A stretch of DNA of 64,000 nt from an uncultured Verrucomicrobiota bacterium (GCA_903847335.1 CAINDI010000069.1:1677-65676), one strand, 5' to 3'. Positions 9,758 through 48,598 are shown, counted from the stretch's first letter. Translations and numbers: made by a program. Notes: a model not told the origin generated them from the sequence alone.

Positions 9758-9934
9758 TTACTTCTCGCTCGTCGGCCGTTCCGCCTCATCAATCAGCATG
9801 ACCGGAATGCCGTCACGAATCGGATAACGCAACCCGCACTGTGGATTAGTGCAAATAATCCAGTCTCCTTCGAGTTTTACCTCGGTCTTGCATTTCGGAC
9901 AGGCAAGAATTTCGAGCAATTCTTTATCAATCAT
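9758..9934 (-). CDS. Trm112/UPF0434-family small protein (58 aa)
   Basis: Not in the ORF track (<60 aa). My translation is MIDKELLEILACPKCKTEVKLEGDWIICTNPQCGLRYPIRDGIPVMLIDEAERPTSEK; it shows the CPxC...C Trm112 zinc-ribbon signature; start overlaps the larC stop (ATGA). Confidence 0.6.
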   Translation of the reverse strand: MIDKELLEILACPKCKTEVKLEGDWIICTNPQCGLRYPIRDGIPVMLIDEAERPTSEK

Positions 9935-40812: not shown

Positions 40813-42540
40813 TTACGGCAACGACAACTGCTCGATGTACCGGTCTTCAAAACCGGCGTCTAAATTCAACTCCACCACGTCCATCTTCTTAGCGGCGCGG
40901 GCAATTTCATCCAACGCACCGCAATCTAGCAACGCCAAATACGCGCCAGCCAAACTGGTGTTGCCGACCACTTCAATTTGCTCCGGTACAAATCCCGGCA
41001 ACAATCCACACGCAATTGCATTCTCGCGATCGAGGTGCAAACCAAATCCACCGGCAAGATAGAGTTTTTTAATCTGCGCGGGTTTCAACCCGGCGCGCTC
41101 CAACAACGTCAGAATACCGGCAGCAATCGCCGCCTTCGCCTGCATCAATCCAGCAATGTCCATTTCCGTCACCACGATATCAGTCTTACCGGAACCTGTC
41201 GCCACCCGCAACGCCCGGCCATAATCTTTCCACGGCATTGTCTGCTCCGTAAACGCATTCTCAAACCGCCCGCGCTCGTTCAGAAAACCGGTGGCGCGGC
41301 CTTCCGCTAGAAAATCCACATACGCCGTCCCGCACAAACCAATCGGCATCCCCTGCCCGATTTTTTCCAGCGCAACTGAAAATGGATTTGGATTCAATTT
41401 TATATGCGCAATCGCACCGGCGGTGGCGCGAACGCCGTTAGTCATCCCGGCGCCTTCAAACGCCGGACCCGCTGCCGTGGCGCAGCCGGAAAGATTGTTG
41501 CCGCGCTTCAGGATGATTTCTCCATTCGTTCCGACATCCACCAACAACGCCGGACCTTCGTCGTACACCAAGCCGGTCGCGAATGCGCCGGCGGTTAAAT
41601 CCGCACCGACATACGCTGCGGCACTCGGTAAGAGATGAATTATGAACGACCAGCCGGGAATCGCTGCGAGCCGGTGCTCCAGAAATGTCGCTGTGAACGG
41701 CGCCAACCCCATCGACGACGGATCCACTCCGGCAAACAAATGCAACATGGTTGTGTTCGCCGCCACCGTCATACACCGGACTTGCGCTAACGTTGCGCCA
41801 GCCTTGCTGAGTGCTTCATTGAGTAATGGTTTTAGCGTTTCCTCGACAATCAAATCTTGCAAATGCTTGAGTTGAGTCGGGTCGGTACTGCAAAGATTAA
41901 TCCGCGTCAGAACGTCGTCGCCGAGATGCATCTGCCGATTGAAGTTTGCCGCGCCGCCCAACACTTTGCCATCGCGTAAATCGCAAATGAGCAACGCCAC
42001 CGTCGTCGTGCCGATGTCCACCGCCACGCCGAGCGGTTGCGCCTCCGGTGTTGCGGAAACGCTAGTCACAAGCCAATGGTCGTCTCGGTATTCGAGCGTC
42101 GCAATCGCGTCCACCGGCAGGTTCGGCGTCACACGGACCGGTCGCCGGCGTTGAATACCAGCTACACCATTCGCCGGTACCGCAACCTGTTGCCAGAGCG
42201 GATCGTGAGCGCGCGGAACATTCGTTTTGAATTCGCTGACAACCTGCGGTTCGTACGCTAACAACGAGCGCGCCGGAATCCGCACGGTTACCGGACCGTC
42301 GTGTGCGAGCCGGTATTCGCAACCGCGCAAAGCTTGACCGGTACCGGTCACAGTTTCACCGGTCGCCATATTCGTGAGACTACCGGTGAGCAATTCAATA
42401 ATGCAACCATCACACAAACCGCGCTGACCACACCGGGTATTCAGTGGAAAATGTTTTCGCCGGAGCAAATCGCTCAAACGCTCGGCACCGGTGACGTTGA
42501 GAACTTGCGGACCTTTGGCAGTTTCGATGGTGAGATTCAT
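40813..42540 (-). CDS. RACo-like reductive activator of corrinoid proteins (N-terminal 2Fe-2S ferredoxin + ASKHA ATPase domain, DUF4445)
   Basis: 575 aa; plant-type ferredoxin motif CGQRGLCDGC; actin-like ATPase GVAVDIGTTTV and GGFG motifs; architecture of corrinoid activation proteins. Confidence 0.7.
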   Translation of the reverse strand: MNLTIETAKGPQVLNVTGAERLSDLLRRKHFPLNTRCGQRGLCDGCIIELLTGSLTNMATGETVTGTGQALRGCEYRLAHDGPVTVRIPARSLLAYEPQVVSEFKTNVPRAHDPLWQQVAVPANGVAGIQRRRPVRVTPNLPVDAIATLEYRDDHWLVTSVSATPEAQPLGVAVDIGTTTVALLICDLRDGKVLGGAANFNRQMHLGDDVLTRINLCSTDPTQLKHLQDLIVEETLKPLLNEALSKAGATLAQVRCMTVAANTTMLHLFAGVDPSSMGLAPFTATFLEHRLAAIPGWSFIIHLLPSAAAYVGADLTAGAFATGLVYDEGPALLVDVGTNGEIILKRGNNLSGCATAAGPAFEGAGMTNGVRATAGAIAHIKLNPNPFSVALEKIGQGMPIGLCGTAYVDFLAEGRATGFLNERGRFENAFTEQTMPWKDYGRALRVATGSGKTDIVVTEMDIAGLMQAKAAIAAGILTLLERAGLKPAQIKKLYLAGGFGLHLDRENAIACGLLPGFVPEQIEVVGNTSLAGAYLALLDCGALDEIARAAKKMDVVELNLDAGFEDRYIEQLSLP

Positions 42541-43259
42541 GGCACGAGTTCAATCACGCGTTCGTCGGCGACCAGCCGGAAAGTTTGCCCGGGAGGGACG
42601 ACAAGAAACCGGTCATTATCCCACGGACCGGAGAGCAATGCTTTCAGTAGAGATGGATCGCCAGCTTGGCAATCGCATTTCCAGCCGAGCCAATCCGCGC
42701 ATTTTTTGGTGTAGGCGTGTTGCTGCTCAACGTCACCGGTGTCGAGGTGCACAAACGCGGCGTTATCGTATTTTTTGAACCAAGCCTGTTCAGTCTCCAT
42801 CAAAAAATCGGCATTGTCCTCGCCGTATTTTTCGACGTACTCGCCCCGGGTTTGCTCATACCGTTCCTTGCCGGGTGGGGCGTGATGTTTATTCCAGCCG
42901 ATGCTGTACCAGTAGGTCCCGGGATTTTGCTTCACGTATTCCGCGTAGCGTTCTTTACTGCCGAGTAGATGCGTGATGCAATCGTGTGCGCGGGCGATAA
43001 CGAGTCGGCACCGATTTGTTTTCACGCCTTCGGTACCGCGACTGCACAAGCCGTAACCGAGAACGATAACTTCGGCATTCGTCTCCACCTCGACCCGGTT
43101 AATGGCGGCCTGAACGGTGGTTCGTAGTTTATCCGGCTCTCGGTGTAAAGCCCACTCGAGTTTCTCGATTCGAACGATGTGCGTCAAATCGGTCGCGAAA
43201 TGCGCGATTTCCGTTTCGAGGACGGCGCAGGTGATGACAGCGACACGCGGTGTATTCAT
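42537..43259 (-). CDS. DUF1638 domain protein (accessory protein of corrinoid methyltransferase loci)
   Basis: 240 aa; overlaps RACo start; my recollection is that the DUF1638 family co-occurs with corrinoid protein/methyltransferase genes. Confidence 0.55.
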   Translation of the reverse strand: MNTPRVAVITCAVLETEIAHFATDLTHIVRIEKLEWALHREPDKLRTTVQAAINRVEVETNAEVIVLGYGLCSRGTEGVKTNRCRLVIARAHDCITHLLGSKERYAEYVKQNPGTYWYSIGWNKHHAPPGKERYEQTRGEYVEKYGEDNADFLMETEQAWFKKYDNAAFVHLDTGDVEQQHAYTKKCADWLGWKCDCQAGDPSLLKALLSGPWDNDRFLVVPPGQTFRLVADERVIELVP

Positions 43260-43271
43260 GAGCGCAATAAT

Positions 43272-44165
43272 TTAGCGACCAATCTCCGGTATGTCCAGAC
43301 TCGGAATCTGGAGATGTTGGATGACGGGATTACCGGTGATGAGAAACCCGGATTGCATCGAGGCCCGGTAATCACGCGGCGAAAGCCCATACACTTTGTG
43401 GAACTTGTTCGAGAAATGATAGGGCGAGGCAAAACCGACGATGTCGGCAATTTGGCGAATCCGCAAATTGCTCCGGAGCAGCAACGACGCGGCGCGTTCC
43501 AGTCGGGCGAGACCCGCGCATTCCAGCGGACCGAGATCGAGATGGCGGCGAAATAGCCGGCAGAGATATTCCGGTGAGACGTGCGCGGCTTTCGCCAACG
43601 CGGTTAAGGTAATCGGCAACGGCGGGTCGTGCGCAAGAGCTTGCCGGATTGAACGGAGTGTTTTTTGGACAGCCGGCGGCAGATTTTCCAGCGGTTCCAA
43701 GGCGATGGCGGTTTGATTATCGAGAAATCCGCGCAGCATTAGAGTGACCGCCGCTTCGAGTAGTGGAGTGTGAATCGGTTTCTGATTTTGAGCCATACCG
43801 ATGACGTACCGGAACATCGGGCGTAAAATATCTTCCGGTGTCATGGTTCGGTTCAGCGGCCATTCGTTTAACGGCGGCCAGCCGGGGTCGGAGTAGTCGA
43901 AGCTAAAGTGAAAAAATGCCTGCATTGTCCGACGCGTCGAATCCCAATCGTACCGGTCAGTCATGCCGGGGCGTCCCAAAAGAACGGTACCGGCAGGGGC
44001 ATCGATATTCCGGCCATCGAAACTTGCTTTGGCGTGGCCGTCAATAATCCAGACGAATTCAAAGTCATGCAGTAAGCGCGGCCCAAAAGTCGCCCCCGGA
44101 GGATAGACGGAAATCCCGGCGTTGCCAACGAGCAGGCCTTCTGTGGTGGTAAAAGCCATGGTCAA
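43272..44165 (-). CDS. AraC-family transcriptional regulator
   Basis: C-terminal double HTH (YLCRLFRRHL...IADIVGFASPYHFSNKFHKVYGLSPRDYR); N-terminal cupin-like sensing domain. Confidence 0.75.
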   Translation of the reverse strand: MTMAFTTTEGLLVGNAGISVYPPGATFGPRLLHDFEFVWIIDGHAKASFDGRNIDAPAGTVLLGRPGMTDRYDWDSTRRTMQAFFHFSFDYSDPGWPPLNEWPLNRTMTPEDILRPMFRYVIGMAQNQKPIHTPLLEAAVTLMLRGFLDNQTAIALEPLENLPPAVQKTLRSIRQALAHDPPLPITLTALAKAAHVSPEYLCRLFRRHLDLGPLECAGLARLERAASLLLRSNLRIRQIADIVGFASPYHFSNKFHKVYGLSPRDYRASMQSGFLITGNPVIQHLQIPSLDIPEIGR

Positions 44166-44297
44166 TTACCGGTAGGTTTCCGTAATTTTAAGATATTGTC
44201 AAGAATGCAAGCTTCTGGTAATTCTGACGACAGTTGCAACAGGCCGGTGTTTCATCATGGTCAATTCACGGCAGGCGCAACCATAAAAGGAAATCAA

Positions 44298-44930
44298 ATG
44301 AGCGAACTACAGAAACTGTCCGAGTCCGTAGAAAAAGGTAATCGTAACGAAGCCAAGCGGATTACGAATGAACTCCTCGCCGCCGGTATGAAACCACTCG
44401 ACGTCGTCGAACAAGGTCTCGTCCCCGGCATGAACACCATTGGCGAAAAGTTTAAGAACAACCAGATTTTTGTCCCCGAAATGCTCATCGCCGCCCGCGC
44501 TATGAAAGAAGCGATGGCGATTCTCGAACCACTTCTCGTTAAAGCCGGCATCAAGCCTGCGTTTACTGCCGTCATCGGCACTGTGCAAGGCGATCTCCAT
44601 GACATCGGCAAGAATCTTGTCGCCATGATGTGGAAAGGTGCAAACTTCGGTGTCGTTGACCTCGGAACGAATGTAACGCCAGAAAAATTTGTCGCGGCTG
44701 CCAAAGAACATAACGCTCAGGTTATCGGTCTCTCCGCGTTGTTGACCACCACAATGCCGGCAATGAAGACCACAATTGCCGCCGTCAAAGCGGCGGGCCT
44801 CACCGGTGTTAAAATCGTCATCGGTGGCGCGCCAATCACCAGCGAGTTCGCCAAAGAAATCGGTGCTGACGCTTTTGCACCCGACGCCGCCAGCGCGGTG
44901 GATGTCGTCCGAAATCTTATTGCGGCGTAA
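44298..44930 (+). CDS. cobalamin-binding corrinoid protein (MtaC/MtbC/MetH-B12-domain-like)
   Basis: start at MSELQKL (good AAGGA SD); B12-binding-cap helix bundle, then Rossmann domain with DxHxxG (GDLHDIGKN) and GG motif. Confidence 0.8.
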   Translation: MSELQKLSESVEKGNRNEAKRITNELLAAGMKPLDVVEQGLVPGMNTIGEKFKNNQIFVPEMLIAARAMKEAMAILEPLLVKAGIKPAFTAVIGTVQGDLHDIGKNLVAMMWKGANFGVVDLGTNVTPEKFVAAAKEHNAQVIGLSALLTTTMPAMKTTIAAVKAAGLTGVKIVIGGAPITSEFAKEIGADAFAPDAASAVDVVRNLIAA

Positions 44931-44943
44931 ATTCGACAATAAC

Positions 44944-45780
44944 CTATTGAAAGTCGCGCCGGTAAGCAGCAGGCGAGCGTCCCATTGTCTTTTTGAAGAC
45001 TCGGTAGAATTGTGGGTAGCTCCCAAAACCGGCCTCCAGTGCTGCCGTGAGCATTTTCATCCGCTGACCGGTTCCGTAGAGTTGTAAAAAACGCTCGATC
45101 CGCTGCCGGTTGCGAAAGTCGAGTAAAGTCACGCCAGTCTGTTGCTTGAATAAATGGCTTAACCGGGAAGGACTCAGACCGGCCTGGTGCGCCAGTTCTT
45201 CAATGGACAGCGCTGCGCCAGCGTCACGAATCAAGTAGGTTGCCTTTTCCACAGCCGGATGGACATCGCTACCAGTTAAATTATCACCGGTGGTGATAAA
45301 TTTTTCCCAAGTTAATAAAAGCGCGTAGGCCAAACCAGTGTTAAAAAGACTGTCTTGATTCCGGGCGGCTTCAATTTCTTCGTATACCAATTCAAGGCGA
45401 TTGAATGTCGCCGCTGTTAAACGACGATTGCATTGACCATCGGGATTGGTTTCGCGCAAGGTTTGGGCGTTCGTGTCACAAACGATTCGATCAATAAGTT
45501 GCGGTTTGAAAACACCAATCCACATTTTGAAATCCGGCGATTGATCGATCAACACATGTTCCTGTGCCGGAAAAAGCCAGAGTAAATCACCCCGGCGAAT
45601 TTGGTATTTACGCTTCGCTAAAAGATAGCAAGCCGTACCTTGTGTGATCAGATTAAATTCCAGTTCGGCATGATGATGCATGGGCACAACGCGCCCTTGA
45701 TTCTGATACAACCAGAGATTCCCATCGTGGTTATCTGGCAGGTTTAACCGTGATTTCATAACAGCTGCAAATGATAACAC
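44944..45780 (-). CDS. AraC-family transcriptional regulator (second copy)
   Basis: C-terminal AraC HTH (LAHQAGLSPSRLSHLFKQ...GFGSYPQFYRVFKKTMGRSPAAYRR); cupin-like N-terminal domain. Confidence 0.75.
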   Translation of the reverse strand: MLSFAAVMKSRLNLPDNHDGNLWLYQNQGRVVPMHHHAELEFNLITQGTACYLLAKRKYQIRRGDLLWLFPAQEHVLIDQSPDFKMWIGVFKPQLIDRIVCDTNAQTLRETNPDGQCNRRLTAATFNRLELVYEEIEAARNQDSLFNTGLAYALLLTWEKFITTGDNLTGSDVHPAVEKATYLIRDAGAALSIEELAHQAGLSPSRLSHLFKQQTGVTLLDFRNRQRIERFLQLYGTGQRMKMLTAALEAGFGSYPQFYRVFKKTMGRSPAAYRRDFQ

Positions 45781-45833
45781 GTCGCCTGAAAATGAGAAGT
45801 CGCCGCAATAGTTATCTGTTAGAATTTTAACTC

Positions 45834-46631
45834 ATGAATATTATTACCGAAGCTCATCGTGAATTGTACCAGAAAGAAGGCTACATGATTTTGCCGGGGG
45901 TAATCCCGCCAAATCTATTAAAAATGTTACGAGAGGAATGTTCGTATTTCCTCGGATATTACGATTCCCAAATGGATGCACGCCGTGTGCAAGTGGACGG
46001 CATCAACCACCGTGGAAAGCGCTATTTCATCAACAATCGTTATCGTCTAAGCAACCGGCTGTGGGAGTTTATTTTCAGTCCGCTAATGGCCGAGATCGCC
46101 CAAGCCGCACTCGGTCCAGATGTATATTTATTTCACGAACAATGGGTCGTTAAAGGCGCAGAGCAAGGGATGAAATTCGCTTGGCATCAGGATAGTGGGT
46201 ACGTGAAATACGGCGATCCGCAAACCAAGCACAAACCGTACGTCACTTGCTGGTGCACACTCGACGATGTGAATGAAGCCAACGGTACCGTTTATCTTTT
46301 ACCGCACTCACGCGGAGGCACAAAGAACACAATTTTTGATCACACCAAACAAGCCGGTACAAACGATCTGATTGGCTATACCGGAAATGATCCCGGCGAT
46401 CCGCTCCTTGTGCCCGCTGGTAGCATTGTGGCATTTACTAGCTACAACTTCCATCGAAGCGGTGCCAACACCACCAATCGGATGCGGCGCGTTTACCTCC
46501 CACAATACAGCTCCGAACCGATCACTCGCGCCACCGGAGAGTTTTGGCAACTCGCGACACCCTTCGTTAAAGACAATCAAATTATCTACAACCGCGCGAA
46601 TGATACCGCCGAGAACTACGGACCAAAATGA
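45834..46631 (+). CDS. phytanoyl-CoA dioxygenase (PhyH) family Fe(II)/2-oxoglutarate oxygenase
   Basis: 265 aa; HxD facial-triad motif (FAWHQDSGY) and a distal His near the C-terminus. Confidence 0.7.
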   Translation: MNIITEAHRELYQKEGYMILPGVIPPNLLKMLREECSYFLGYYDSQMDARRVQVDGINHRGKRYFINNRYRLSNRLWEFIFSPLMAEIAQAALGPDVYLFHEQWVVKGAEQGMKFAWHQDSGYVKYGDPQTKHKPYVTCWCTLDDVNEANGTVYLLPHSRGGTKNTIFDHTKQAGTNDLIGYTGNDPGDPLLVPAGSIVAFTSYNFHRSGANTTNRMRRVYLPQYSSEPITRATGEFWQLATPFVKDNQIIYNRANDTAENYGPK

Positions 46632-47716
46632 ACGACACACTCCAATGGAAGTCAGATTGGCTACAAGCTCGACAAGCACTGACCGCATGGTGGGAACATC
46701 GCGGTTTGGCGTTGCACATCACCGCGCCGAAAAATCCGCCGTGGGAAAATATTCCCCACCCTGGTAAACCGCGTGATCTCCAGCAGCAATGGACTGACTT
46801 AGATTATTGGGTCGCGACTTACGAACACGAAATGGCGCATACATTTTATGGTGGCGTCTCCTTTCCACGTTTATGGACGCTTGTCGGTGGTCCCGGCAGT
46901 CTCGGTTTATTCCTTGGCGCAAACGGCGTGCTTTCGCCTTCCACCGTGTGGTACGACCCGGTGATTCATGAGCCAGAATCATATCCACCATTCCGGCTCG
47001 ATAAATCCGGCACTTGGTGGCGGCGGCATATGGATGTCATTGAACTCAGCCAGCACCGGTCGCGCGGTCGGTATCTAGTCGGGTTTCCGGATATTGTTGA
47101 GAACATTGATACACTCGCGCAATTACGCGACGGCCAATTGTTGTTGATGGATTTACTGGAGCGACCGGACTGGGTGAAATCCAGGCTCACGGAAATCAAC
47201 GCCGCATTTTTTGAATGTTACGAAGATTTTTGGCAACGCTTACGCGATCCGTGGGGTGGTTCAACTTTCTGCGCGTTTGATCTCTGGGGCCCTGGTAAAA
47301 CCTGCAAAATTCAATGCGATTTCTCCTGCATGATTTCAACTGATATGTTTCAGGAGTTCGTCGTACCTGGACTGACAGAACAATGCGAACGGCTGGATTA
47401 CGTGATGTACCATCTTGACGGAACAAACGCCGTCCATCAACTCGATGCTTTACTCGAAATTGAAGCGCTGGCCGCCATCGAATGGACGCCTCAATCCGGT
47501 CTTCCCGGTGGCGGTTCACCACAATGGTATGACATGTACCGGCGCATCAAAGCCGCCGGTAAGAGCGTCCAAGCTGTCGGCGTGAAACCGGAAGAAATCG
47601 CGCCGCTCATTGACGCGGTTGGCGCGGATGGTTTGTATGTTTTGACCACCGGCACCTCGACAGAGGCAGAAGCGCGCGCCCTACTCCATCGTTTTGGCTG
47701 GCAAGGCGACGCCTGA
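46628..47716 (+). CDS. URO-D/MtaA-superfamily TIM-barrel protein, putative corrinoid-dependent methyltransferase (atypical)
   Basis: 362 aa; the C-terminal half resembles uroporphyrinogen decarboxylase / MtaA: AFDLWGPG versus IFDTWGG, and VMYHLDGTNAVHQLDALLEIEAL versus ILHICGDTTPILEDMADTGADAL; the Zn-ligand Cys of HxCG is replaced by Asp. This is an alignment by eye, not a computed one. Confidence 0.4.
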   Translation: MNDTLQWKSDWLQARQALTAWWEHRGLALHITAPKNPPWENIPHPGKPRDLQQQWTDLDYWVATYEHEMAHTFYGGVSFPRLWTLVGGPGSLGLFLGANGVLSPSTVWYDPVIHEPESYPPFRLDKSGTWWRRHMDVIELSQHRSRGRYLVGFPDIVENIDTLAQLRDGQLLLMDLLERPDWVKSRLTEINAAFFECYEDFWQRLRDPWGGSTFCAFDLWGPGKTCKIQCDFSCMISTDMFQEFVVPGLTEQCERLDYVMYHLDGTNAVHQLDALLEIEALAAIEWTPQSGLPGGGSPQWYDMYRRIKAAGKSVQAVGVKPEEIAPLIDAVGADGLYVLTTGTSTEAEARALLHRFGWQGDA

Positions 47717-47734
47717 TTCATATACCTTTCCAGC

Positions 47735-48598
47735 ATGCATCCGGTAATCAAACAACTTCTTGCCACCGGTTCTGTCATTACCGACGGAGCTTGGGGTACT
47801 CAACTTCAAGCTCGCGGTTTACCGGTCGGCGCTTGTCCCGATGAATGGAATCTCACTCAACCCGGTAAGGTTGAAGAAGTCGCCGCCGCCTACGTTGCCG
47901 CCGGTAGCCGTATTATTTTGACCAATACATTTGGCGCCAACCGGATTCGCCTTGCTGAATTTAATCTAGCTGACAAAGTCGCGGAAATTAACCGGCGCGG
48001 TGCGGCGATTTCTAAAAAAGCCGCCGGTAATAAAGCGCTCGTTTTTGCATCCGTTGGACCCACCGGCAAAATGCTCGTCGCCGGCGACGTGACCGAAGAC
48101 GAATTGCGCGTCGCATTTACCGAGCAAGCACAAGCTCTCAAAGCCGGCGGTGCTGATGCGCTCGTCATCGAAACGATGGCCGAACTCGAAGAAGCGCAAA
48201 TCGCTCTCGACGCCGCGAAAAGCACCGGCCTGCCGGTCGTTGTCTGCATGACTTTCGATACCGGTGGCCGCACGATGATGGGCGTTGCTCCCGACCAAGC
48301 CGCCAAGCAATTTACCTCTGCCGGCGCGGATGTCATCGGCAGCAACTGCGGCAACGGCATTGCCGCCTTTATCCCGATTTGCCGCGAACTACGCACCGCG
48401 ACTGACTTGCCAATCTGGATTAAAGCCAATGCCGGCCAACCAGAATATGTGGACGGTAAAGTTATCTACCGGATTACACCGGAAGAATTTGCCGGACATG
48501 TTCCCGCCTTGCGTGCCGCCGGCGCAAATTTCATCGGTGGTTGTTGCGGCACCTCACCGGAACACCTTCGCGTTGTGGTTCAGCAGTTAACTCGTTGA
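47735..48598 (+). CDS. homocysteine S-methyltransferase-domain protein (Pfam S-methyl_trans, MetH N-terminal-domain-like)
   Basis: 287 aa; TDGAWGTQLQ start, NTFGAN, and Zn-binding GGCCGTSPEH motif characteristic of Hcy-binding methyltransferases. Confidence 0.7.
   Translation: MHPVIKQLLATGSVITDGAWGTQLQARGLPVGACPDEWNLTQPGKVEEVAAAYVAAGSRIILTNTFGANRIRLAEFNLADKVAEINRRGAAISKKAAGNKALVFASVGPTGKMLVAGDVTEDELRVAFTEQAQALKAGGADALVIETMAELEEAQIALDAAKSTGLPVVVCMTFDTGGRTMMGVAPDQAAKQFTSAGADVIGSNCGNGIAAFIPICRELRTATDLPIWIKANAGQPEYVDGKVIYRITPEEFAGHVPALRAAGANFIGGCCGTSPEHLRVVVQQLTR

Follow-up and report, generated by a model that had tools for sequence, protein, structure and literature searches.

We analyzed a cluster of eight genes at positions 40813-48598 of a 64,000-nucleotide (nt) stretch of DNA from an uncultured Verrucomicrobiota bacterium (GCA_903847335.1, CAINDI010000069.1:1677-65676); the whole stretch is called the window in the following. 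The domains and motifs of the encoded proteins bear out an initial annotation, made from the sequence alone, which had described the cluster as a corrinoid methyl-transfer cassette of the split-MetH type. Its relay core is already known and consists of a corrinoid protein (CP), a MetH-type homocysteine methyltransferase (HcyMT), a reductive activase (RACo) and a DUF1638 protein. New here are the donor side, which we tentatively assign to a protein of 362 amino acids (aa) called F362, and a large expansion of uroporphyrinogen decarboxylase (URO-D) type genes in glycan-degrading phyla. The cluster is real and conserved, and we read it as a variation on the donor side of a corrinoid methyl-transfer system that is already known: a split-methionine-synthase core in which a new donor module would replace the pterin-binding or MttB-type module. 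The more specific proposal, a substrate-inducible corrinoid-dependent methyl relay with methionine as its end product and F362 on the donor side, has in our judgement an even chance of being correct.

Organization of the cluster

Calling of open reading frames (ORFs) in the window recovered all eight genes of the initial annotation in the arrangement that it had given. The features are:

40813-42540 (-): RACo-type ATP-dependent reductive activase, 575 aa; N-terminal 2Fe-2S Cys motif, middle domain and ASKHA ATPase
42537-43259 (-): DUF1638 protein, 240 aa; Pfam DUF1638 1e-38; partner of RamA/RACo-like activases
43272-44159 (-) (ORF 43272-44165): AraC1, AraC-family regulator, 295 aa from the ATG at 44159; HTH_18, HTH_AraC
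44157-44176 (+): 20-nt direct repeat CATGGTCAATTnnCGGnAGG, copy 1; divergent promoter region of AraC1 and CP, candidate operator
44256-44275 (+): 20-nt direct repeat CATGGTCAATTnnCGGnAGG, copy 2; 99 nt downstream of copy 1, 22 nt ahead of the CP start codon
44298-44930 (+) (ORF 44196-44930): corrinoid (methyl-carrier) protein CP, 210 aa; B12-binding cap and Rossmann domain, His-on DxHxxG
44944-45759 (-) (ORF 44944-45780): AraC2, AraC-family regulator, 271 aa; complete cupin ligand-binding domain; divergent from PhyH
45834-46631 (+): PhyH-family Fe(II)/2-oxoglutarate dioxygenase, 265 aa; PF05721; ATGA overlap with the F362 gene
46628-47716 (+): F362, 362 aa, predicted URO-D/MtaA TIM-barrel fold; no Pfam or NCBIfam match; proposed methyl-donor:corrinoid methyltransferase (MT1)
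47735-48598 (+): HcyMT, standalone MetH-type homocysteine-binding Zn methyltransferase, 287 aa; PF02574; proposed methyl-corrinoid:homocysteine methyltransferase (MT2)

Judging by strand, gene spacing and overlaps, the genes fall into three transcription units. The first, on the minus strand, runs from AraC1 through DUF1638 to RACo, with a gap of 12 nt between AraC1 and DUF1638 and a 4-nt overlap between the RACo start and the DUF1638 stop. The second (+) contains CP alone and diverges from AraC1. The third (+) contains PhyH, F362 (joined by the ATGA overlap) and HcyMT (after a gap of 18 nt), and diverges from AraC2. The real start of CP is probably 44298, as called in identical metagenome contigs, where AraC1 is likewise called at 295 aa. 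A tRNA-Pro(UGG) gene lies 3 nt past the RACo stop.

The relay core

Pfam and NCBIfam back seven of the eight assignments; F362 is the exception. CP contains the Pfam domains B12-binding_2 (1e-24) and B12-binding (1e-26), and it matches the NCBIfam models MtgC_2 (1e-58) and pyl_corrinoid (1e-52), in both cases below the cutoff. Among solved structures it is matched by 1y80 (3e-57), MttC (1.5e-39) and the B12 domain of MetH (4e-31). The motifs D99-L-H101-D-I-G104, S146-x-L and G176-G are intact.

HcyMT is an S-methyl_trans protein (PF02574, 3e-67), which stays below the cutoff of the BHMT-like models in NCBIfam. Its best match in the PDB is the homocysteine domain of T. maritima MetH (1q7m, 1.5e-51), compared with 4e-20 for BHMT and 6e-10 for MmuM-type enzymes, and its Zn ligands Cys205, Cys270 and Cys271 are invariant across 17 relatives. 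Because HcyMT is much closer to the homocysteine domain of the cobalamin-dependent MetH than to BHMT or MmuM, a methyl-corrinoid is favoured as its methyl donor.

RACo matches Raco_middle (1e-40) and RACo_C_ter (2e-71) in Pfam, an AcsV-like model in NCBIfam (8e-99, below cutoff) and, as its best PDB entry, RACo itself (3zyy, 7e-78), with the CGxxGxCxxC segment aligned. The ferredoxin motif C37-x5-C43-x2-C46...C74 was read by inspection and lines up with the 2Fe-2S motif; Pfam made no Fer2 call. The structure model of the DUF1638 protein is confident and has no informative structural neighbour.

The window therefore holds four of the five parts of a split MetH, namely CP, the homocysteine module, RACo and DUF1638. 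Among its ORFs of at least 240 aa we found no pterin-binding part (Pterin_bind, PF00809) and no MttB, MtaB, MetH or MetE, in line with the initial annotation, which had listed the MttB, MtaB and pterin modules as absent.

F362 has a predicted MtaA-like fold

The sequence of F362 gave zero matches in searches of Pfam, NCBIfam and the PDB (phmmer). When 40 of its relatives were compared with Pfam at E<=1, only noise appeared; two of them touched URO-D (PF01208) at E 0.21. An AlphaFold2 model computed with 40 homologs has a pLDDT of 94.8 and a pTM of 0.91. A Foldseek search with this model returned first MtaA of M. mazei (4ay7/4ay8, methylcobalamin:coenzyme M methyltransferase, E 1e-7) and then uroporphyrinogen decarboxylases, at a sequence identity between F362 and MtaA of only ~8-10%. 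Furthermore, a profile of F362 matched a profile of 40 true PF01208 paralogs from related loci with a probability of 97.2% (E 4.5e-11), and these paralogs match MtaA at 2e-21. According to the model, F362 is a protein of the URO-D/MtaA (β/α)8-barrel fold that stands outside the annotated PF01208 family. The label URO-D/MtaA-like in the initial annotation thus holds for the fold, in the model and in the profile comparison, and fails for PF01208 membership, as F362 gave no hit to that profile. With F362 in the MtaA/URO-D fold and the 287-aa protein identified as a MetH-type homocysteine domain, the proteins encoded at 46628-47716 and 47735-48598 both have methyltransferase folds, as had been proposed.

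At the position of the Zn motif H-x-C-G of MtaA, F362 has H262-L-D264-G, and the third ligand, a Cys, has no counterpart in the aligned C-terminal segment. The conserved residues of F362 itself are the invariant pair C230-D231, the near-invariant C234, H262, D264 and E285-W286-T287; in the model all of them are placed at the C-terminal ends of barrel strands. It is possible that they form a different metal or acid-base site. The absence of the Zn-thiol motif H-x-C...C makes the analogy to the thiol methylases MtsA and MtpA, drawn in the initial annotation, a weak one, and a methylthiol chemistry of this kind was dropped.

Corrinoid proteins are known to be loaded by MT1 enzymes of the URO-D fold (OdmB, VdmB, MtvB, MtoB and CdmB; PMC13222342, PMC10418091); the donors of these enzymes are aryl methyl ethers and chloromethane, and some of the enzymes use zinc while others have none (PMC13222342). 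This precedent, the MtaA/URO-D fold and the corrinoid neighbours described below were counted in favour of F362 as an MT1. On these grounds it would be a deeply divergent donor-side methyltransferase.

A search at E<=1e-3 gave 1317 homologs of F362, each of them named 'hypothetical' or without a name. Among GTDB species genomes there are 428 confirmed hits. The hosts are Verrucomicrobiota, Armatimonadota (Chthonomonadales, Fimbriimonadales), Planctomycetota, Chloroflexota (Anaerolineae), Lentisphaerota and Kiritimatiellia.

Conserved neighbourhoods of F362

ORFs were called in 80 F362 loci (designated by L numbers) and clustered, and the clusters were turned into HMMs and named via Pfam; 63 loci with enough flanking sequence were counted as informative. 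A corrinoid-system gene is a neighbour of F362 in 43 of these 63. The neighbours were:

URO-D (PF01208) paralogs: 36 loci, 114 genes, up to ~15 per 20 kb
corrinoid protein: 20 loci
PF02574 homocysteine methyltransferase: 20 loci
GFO/IDH/MocA: 18 loci
DUF1638: 14 loci
MtaB (PF12176, E 9e-163): 11 loci
PhyH: 8 loci
glycoside hydrolase family 2 (GH2): 8 loci
RACo: 6 loci
GH31: 6 loci

Several of these genes lie very close to F362. Across phyla, 16 of 18 CP genes, 18 of 19 HcyMT genes and all 11 MtaB genes are found within 2.5 kb, nearly all on the same strand. Chthonomonadales have a recurrent operon of the order CP-MtaB-F362-UROD-HcyMT-DUF1638-(SAM-MTase)-UROD-GFO, where SAM is S-adenosylmethionine and MTase methyltransferase; the recurrent operon of Verrucomicrobiota is AraC<CP-UROD-F362-UROD.... 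The window's own arrangement is found in full synteny in at least 24 metagenome contigs, which represent one population. This recurrence, together with the closeness of CP, HcyMT and MtaB to F362 across phyla, indicates that the grouping is not due to chance; a fortuitous juxtaposition of the parts, which had been named as a possible objection, is not supported. No pterin-binding or MTHFR gene is recurrent among the unlabelled neighbours in ~40 related clusters.

A reverse search of metagenomes that started from HcyMT uncovered minimal UROD-CP-HcyMT-DUF1638-RACo clusters at L093, L096, L100 and L102. They mark HcyMT as a recurrent partner of URO-D-type enzymes. As these clusters have no F362, the general plan is a URO-D-superfamily enzyme combined with CP, HcyMT and the reactivation pair. 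Judged from these gene sets, F362 is one among several interchangeable URO-D-superfamily partners.

Some further features of these loci deserve mention. Huge tandem arrays of URO-D (PF01208) genes, up to ~15 in 20 kb and with interleaved copies of F362, occur in L019, L073, L083, L014 and L175; by motif, 54 of the array paralogs are of the MtaA type (HxCG), 28 have HxDG and 23 have neither. A family of ~419 aa without a Pfam match (U419) lies inside URO-D/corrinoid arrays (L019:2491, L021:12222, L023:12264, L040:8582, L083:1267) and may be a further member of the URO-D/corrinoid system.

In L021-L038, L053, L060 and L175 (Chthonomonadales and others), a full-length MtaB gene stands directly between CP and F362, with HcyMT downstream. 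The hosts are non-methanogenic, non-acetogenic bacteria. This gene order suggests a transfer of methyl groups from methanol to methionine. A class I SAM-dependent methyltransferase (Methyltransf_24) is conserved as the gene directly after DUF1638 in Chthonomonadales operons (L028, L037, L038, L053, L067, L074, L087), which hints at an onward use of the methyl group tied to methionine and SAM.

PhyH and the carbohydrate context

PhyH (PF05721, 2e-23) has the iron triad H118-x-D120...H207. Its best PDB match is, weakly, the sugar-modifying oxygenase EvdO2 (4xab, 1.2e-7), and it scores far under the NCBIfam cutoffs for ectoine or methylphosphonate hydroxylases. The subfamily has 2679 homologs, of which the top 120 are ~70-80% identical across phyla. 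A divergent ortholog of AraC2 (47-56% identity) is paired with PhyH in every context examined (L176-L179, L002, L054, L068), and the AraC-PhyH pair is conserved across phyla.

The gene that follows PhyH is F362 in the window and in L002, L007, L017, L050, L054, L068, L081 and L177, with fragments of F362 in L178. In L176 and L179 the place of F362 is taken by an MFS_2 transporter of the GPH family and a GH31 gene, whose best solved relatives are α-xylosidases (BoGH31A, 2.4e-141). In Chloroflexota an α-xylosidase-type GH31 (BoGH31A, 1.9e-164) divergently adjoins F362, with a gene for an FAA-hydrolase (XylX-like) downstream, and in L073 such a GH31 is co-transcribed with UROD-UROD-F362. The corrinoid cluster of L174 is located amid xylulokinase, xylose isomerase, lyxose isomerase and GH4 genes; that of L175 adjoins 3-keto-disaccharide hydrolase, GFO, PhyH and a GH67 α-glucuronidase. 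Other sugar-linked neighbours in related loci are GFO/IDH/MocA, GH2, GH35 and GH67.

A single network of associations connects AraC2, PhyH, F362, the GPH transporter and the α-xylosidase-type GH31, and this network argues for a glycoside-derived substrate. Our best guess from this context is that the methyl donor is a carbohydrate-linked methyl group, e.g. that of an O-methylated sugar from a complex glycan, possibly an α-xyloside. The next candidate is a methoxylated aromatic aglycone, which would be chemically more conservative for a URO-D-type MT1. The methylthio or other small methylated donor of the initial annotation found no support.

Two observations were made beside these. L176 (Acidobacteriaceae) and L179 (another contig) have an AraC<PhyH>MFS_2>GH31>GH141-like operon, in which the GH141-like protein is a β-helix, and an apionate lactonase is encoded nearby; this gene set, whose PhyH belongs to the subfamily found in the window, recalls the degradation of rhamnogalacturonan-II side chains. 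In L178 (7010-7723) the F362 gene after AraC<PhyH> is broken into two fragments that overlap, which points to a frameshifted pseudogene or to an error of assembly.

Regulators and control signals

Pfam confirmed that two AraC regulators bracket CP: AraC1 matches HTH_18 (3e-21), HTH_AraC (3e-18) and, weakly, AraC_binding, and AraC2 matches AraC_binding (3e-10) and HTH_AraC (3e-20). The repeat CATGGTCAATTnnCGGnAGG, a candidate AraC operator, had two matches in a DNA search compared with 0.00 expected; copy 1 overlaps the start codon of AraC1. A riboswitch search between 38 and 52 kb detected only the tRNA and neither a cobalamin nor a SAM riboswitch. Scans for promoters and terminators performed no better than on shuffled sequence. 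Control by AraC proteins and the absence of riboswitches fit an inducible rather than a housekeeping role.

Proposed mechanism

The following scheme takes each reaction step from homology. RACo would reduce inactive Co(II) on CP to Co(I) with the help of ATP and its 2Fe-2S cluster, as expected from its family, and DUF1638 would assist. F362, acting as MT1, would bind the methylated inducing substrate, from which Co(I)-CP would take the methyl group to give CH3-Co(III)-CP. HcyMT, with its strong homology to the MetH homocysteine domain, would then move the methyl group to homocysteine, forming methionine and regenerating Co(I). AraC2 would turn on PhyH, F362 and HcyMT in response to the substrate, and AraC1 would control CP and the reactivation genes. 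PhyH may act on the same substrate or in the same pathway as an O2-dependent alternative demethylase or hydroxylase.

In a wider and still tentative form, to which we assign a low probability, F362, the URO-D arrays, the shared CP, RACo/DUF1638 and HcyMT would constitute an O-demethylation system for methylated carbohydrates in respiratory glycan degraders (Verrucomicrobiota, Armatimonadota, Planctomycetota, Chloroflexota). It would unblock the sugar and keep the methyl group as methionine, with AraC-PhyH as an O2/2-oxoglutarate route for the same substrates. Candidate substrates are 2-O-methyl-xylose or 2-O-methyl-fucose of rhamnogalacturonan II and 4-O-methyl-glucuronate.

Several points weigh against the relay and its extension to sugars. 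In 20 of the 63 informative loci F362 is 'solo', with no corrinoid gene within reach; the immediate neighbours in these loci are mixed (TatD, glutaminase, M20, DegT, HAD, ADH), and a conserved partner was not found among them. The Zn triad of MtaA is lost in F362, where the His alone is kept (H-x-D-G) and the C-terminal Cys is absent. The main F362 clade has a median identity of 51% over four phyla and is usually single-copy, compared with a mean column identity of 26% among the URO-D paralogs; such high conservation and single copy could likewise be explained by a module of general, not substrate-specific, function. The reverse metagenome search from HcyMT, which was diluted by YitJ-like (~610 aa) and MetH-like (~800 aa) fusions, returned no F362. 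Homocysteine as the sole acceptor cannot take up a large catabolic methyl flux; for an O-methylated sugar as donor this low-capacity sink would suffice. PhyH requires O2, yet Co(I) is sensitive to O2. For Co(I), an aliphatic (sugar) ether is chemically more difficult to demethylate than an aryl ether, and no report of a corrinoid-dependent demethylation of methyl sugars was found in the literature searched. The same literature yielded nothing relevant on MtaB in Armatimonadetes or on O-demethylases or such systems in the phyla with F362.

Alternative explanations

The cluster could be a housekeeping split methionine synthase, i.e. the organism's MetH in pieces. The step from methyl-tetrahydrofolate (methyl-THF) would then fall to a pterin-binding protein whose gene lies elsewhere, or to F362 in the role of a novel folate-side module, and PhyH would be unrelated or auxiliary. 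This accords with the occurrence of four of the five parts known from Phaeobacter and Ruegeria, with the strong conservation of the mostly single-copy F362 and its position between CP and HcyMT in many operons, and with the fact that the window offers no other candidate for a donor module. We nevertheless consider it unlikely. A Pterin_bind gene is neither in the window (among the ORFs scanned) nor recurrent in the ~40 related clusters, linkage to MTHFR is absent, and two AraC regulators are in control where a SAM or B12 riboswitch was not found. Furthermore, F362 is translationally coupled to PhyH, which in other loci has a sugar transporter and an α-xylosidase-type GH31 as conserved partners; F362 is present twice in several clusters and adjoins GH31 elsewhere without CP or HcyMT. 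Finally, binding of folate by a URO-D-fold protein is not known.

The same parts could also be wired differently. HcyMT may be a direct methyl-donor:homocysteine enzyme like BHMT, MmuM or Bmt that works without CP, and its Phaeobacter homolog Bmt indeed needs neither cobalamin nor THF to make methionine in vitro, directly from dimethylsulfoniopropionate (DMSP) or betaine (PMC12366255). Alternatively, F362 may be an acceptor-side, MtaA-like MT2 that methylates another nucleophile: its best structural match, MtaA, is an MT2 enzyme, and in Chthonomonadales it follows CP-MtaB and thus occupies the place of MtaA in methanogens. The similarity values of HcyMT given above argue against the first version, as does its tight and repeated linkage to CP, DUF1638 and RACo; against the second stand the missing thiol-activating H-x-C...C site and the lack of any other recurrent acceptor-side candidate in the clusters. 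Overall, a different wiring appears improbable.

Least probable of all is that F362 is a TIM-barrel enzyme that acts in a xyloside or sugar pathway independently of corrinoids, together with PhyH and GH31, and is adjacent to CP and HcyMT without sharing a reaction with them: the 20 'solo' loci, the divergent GH31 and FAA-hydrolase (XylX-like) neighbours in Chloroflexota, the AraC-PhyH-F362 triads in loci with no corrinoid gene nearby and the lost Zn motif can be explained in this way, but not easily the same-strand adjacency to CP, HcyMT and MtaB in at least 16-19 loci of several phyla, the interleaving of F362 with URO-D paralogs within CP-headed operons, or a closest structural relative that is a corrinoid methyltransferase.

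Other features of the window

The cluster is surrounded by housekeeping genes (nuo operon, PIG-L, RecQ, PPDK, sigma-70). A genomic island at tRNA-Pro was ruled out by the absence of an integrase, the ordinary composition and the conserved synteny with nuo, RecQ and PPDK. Two genes have no visible relation to the cluster: 61250-63235 (-) encodes a B12-binding radical SAM protein of 661 aa, and 9931-11106 (-) a LarC-type nickel-insertion protein (PF01969, 1e-147). The region 11409-17646 contains a gene for a Zot/pI-like morphogenesis ATPase (Pfam Zot 6e-19; PHROG Zot-like 2e-22, M13 protein I 3e-19) followed by small unannotated ORFs, and the GC content dips to 0.447 at 14-16 kb; it is probably an integrated filamentous (inovirus-like) prophage. 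A trio at 21724-24313 comprises a TP_methylase (226 aa), a 142-aa ORF and an AMP-binding enzyme, and is syntenic in a related verrucomicrobial contig (L004, 1445-4028), just upstream of an AraC-CP-UROD3-F362 cluster.

Implications

F362 (~1300 sequence clusters) represents a predicted new branch of the URO-D/MtaA methyltransferase-fold superfamily, which provides a testable function for many 'hypothetical proteins'. Corrinoid systems with HcyMT as the only recurrent acceptor module are widespread beyond the marine Alphaproteobacteria in which the split MetH was discovered, often with MtaB and with up to ~15 URO-D paralogs, in phyla whose reputation rests more on the aerobic breakdown of polysaccharides than on methylotrophy. 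Should methylated sugars or glycoside aglycones be the donors, such systems would be a missing route for the removal of methyl groups that block glycan catabolism, and would tie the methionine economy of soil and freshwater bacteria directly to B12 supply and glycan degradation. The cultured Chthonomonas calidirosea appears to carry a related operon, in a metagenome-assembled genome assigned to this species, and would be experimentally approachable.

Comparison with known systems

The initial annotation had not recognized the combination as a characterized system; its core, however, is that of the split methionine synthase demonstrated by genetics in Phaeobacter and Ruegeria (PMC5764234, PMC12478193). 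In Phaeobacter inhibens the enzyme is split into homocysteine, B12 and pterin modules (PGA1_c13370/c13350/c16040), and a RamA-like ferredoxin/DUF4445 protein and DUF1638 are also needed (PMC5764234). In Ruegeria pomeroyi the corrinoid protein MtgC also takes methyl groups from glycine betaine via the MttB-family protein MtgB, and is unloaded by MtgD (pterin) and MtgE (homocysteine) (PMC12478193). The cluster shares with these Rhodobacterales the standalone PF02574 protein, the standalone CP, the ferredoxin plus ASKHA activase and DUF1638 (PMC5764234, PMC12478193), and also the principle that one CP can receive methyl groups from a donor-specific methyltransferase and pass them on to homocysteine, in organisms with oxygen-tolerant lifestyles. 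It differs in that the pterin-binding (MtgD) and MttB-family (MtgB) modules were not found, either here or in the related clusters; in having F362 as donor candidate, the coupling to PhyH and the AraC control; and in its occurrence in Verrucomicrobiota and other phyla. The sequences of the window also fall below the NCBIfam cutoffs for the MtgC and BHMT-like models.

The O-demethylase and chloromethane systems of acetogens and Desulfitobacterium, with three or four components (OdmABCD, VdmB, MtvABC, MtoABCD, CdmBCA), likewise combine a URO-D-fold MT1 that loads a small CP, a role that F362 would play here, with a RACo/RACE activase and many MT1 paralogs per genome for different donors (PMC13222342, PMC8630106). 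On their acceptor side a pterin-binding MT2 forms methyl-THF or methyl-tetrahydromethanopterin, in contrast to the MetH-type homocysteine module found here. They belong to strict anaerobes, whereas the hosts here are respiratory polysaccharide degraders, and F362 lies outside PF01208. In comparison with the methanol:coenzyme M system MtaABC (MtaA, 4ay7), the Zn ligands H-x-C...C are replaced by H-x-D-G in F362. Coenzyme M is not expected in F362-carrying bacteria.

URO-D-rich corrinoid clusters that lack a folate methylase have been described from anaerobic Firmicutes (type 1 mlp; PMC10418091). They combine MtaA-like proteins with a CP and Ram/RACE, and resemble the present clusters in having several URO-D-superfamily proteins and no pterin-binding MT2 (PMC10418091). 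Unlike the latter they belong to strict anaerobes, for the most part Firmicutes; their Mlps are closely related to the coenzyme M methyltransferases, they are without the homocysteine module, DUF1638 and PhyH, and a role in methyl-sulfur or selenide metabolism has been proposed for them (PMC10418091). Membership in this group was ruled out by the different phyla and by the homocysteine module, which mlp clusters lack.

The core (folate-independent) methionine synthases MesA-D also do not obtain the methyl group directly from methyl-folate, and MesA-C are predicted to use corrinoid proteins (PMC7857596). They stand on the MetE side of the shared URO-D/CIMS fold clan (PMC7857596). Their homocysteine catalyst is MetE-like, whereas here it is MetH-like (PF02574) and F362 has no His-Cys-Glu-Cys homocysteine/Zn site. 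Should the donor be a methyl sugar, the comparable system is the P450 6-O-methyl-D-galactose demethylase of marine Bacteroidetes, the sole characterized case of an unblocking of methylated sugars in glycan degradation (PMC6292453, PMC9400963). In contrast to the relay proposed here, that reaction is oxidative and corrinoid-free, releases formaldehyde and does not conserve the methyl group.

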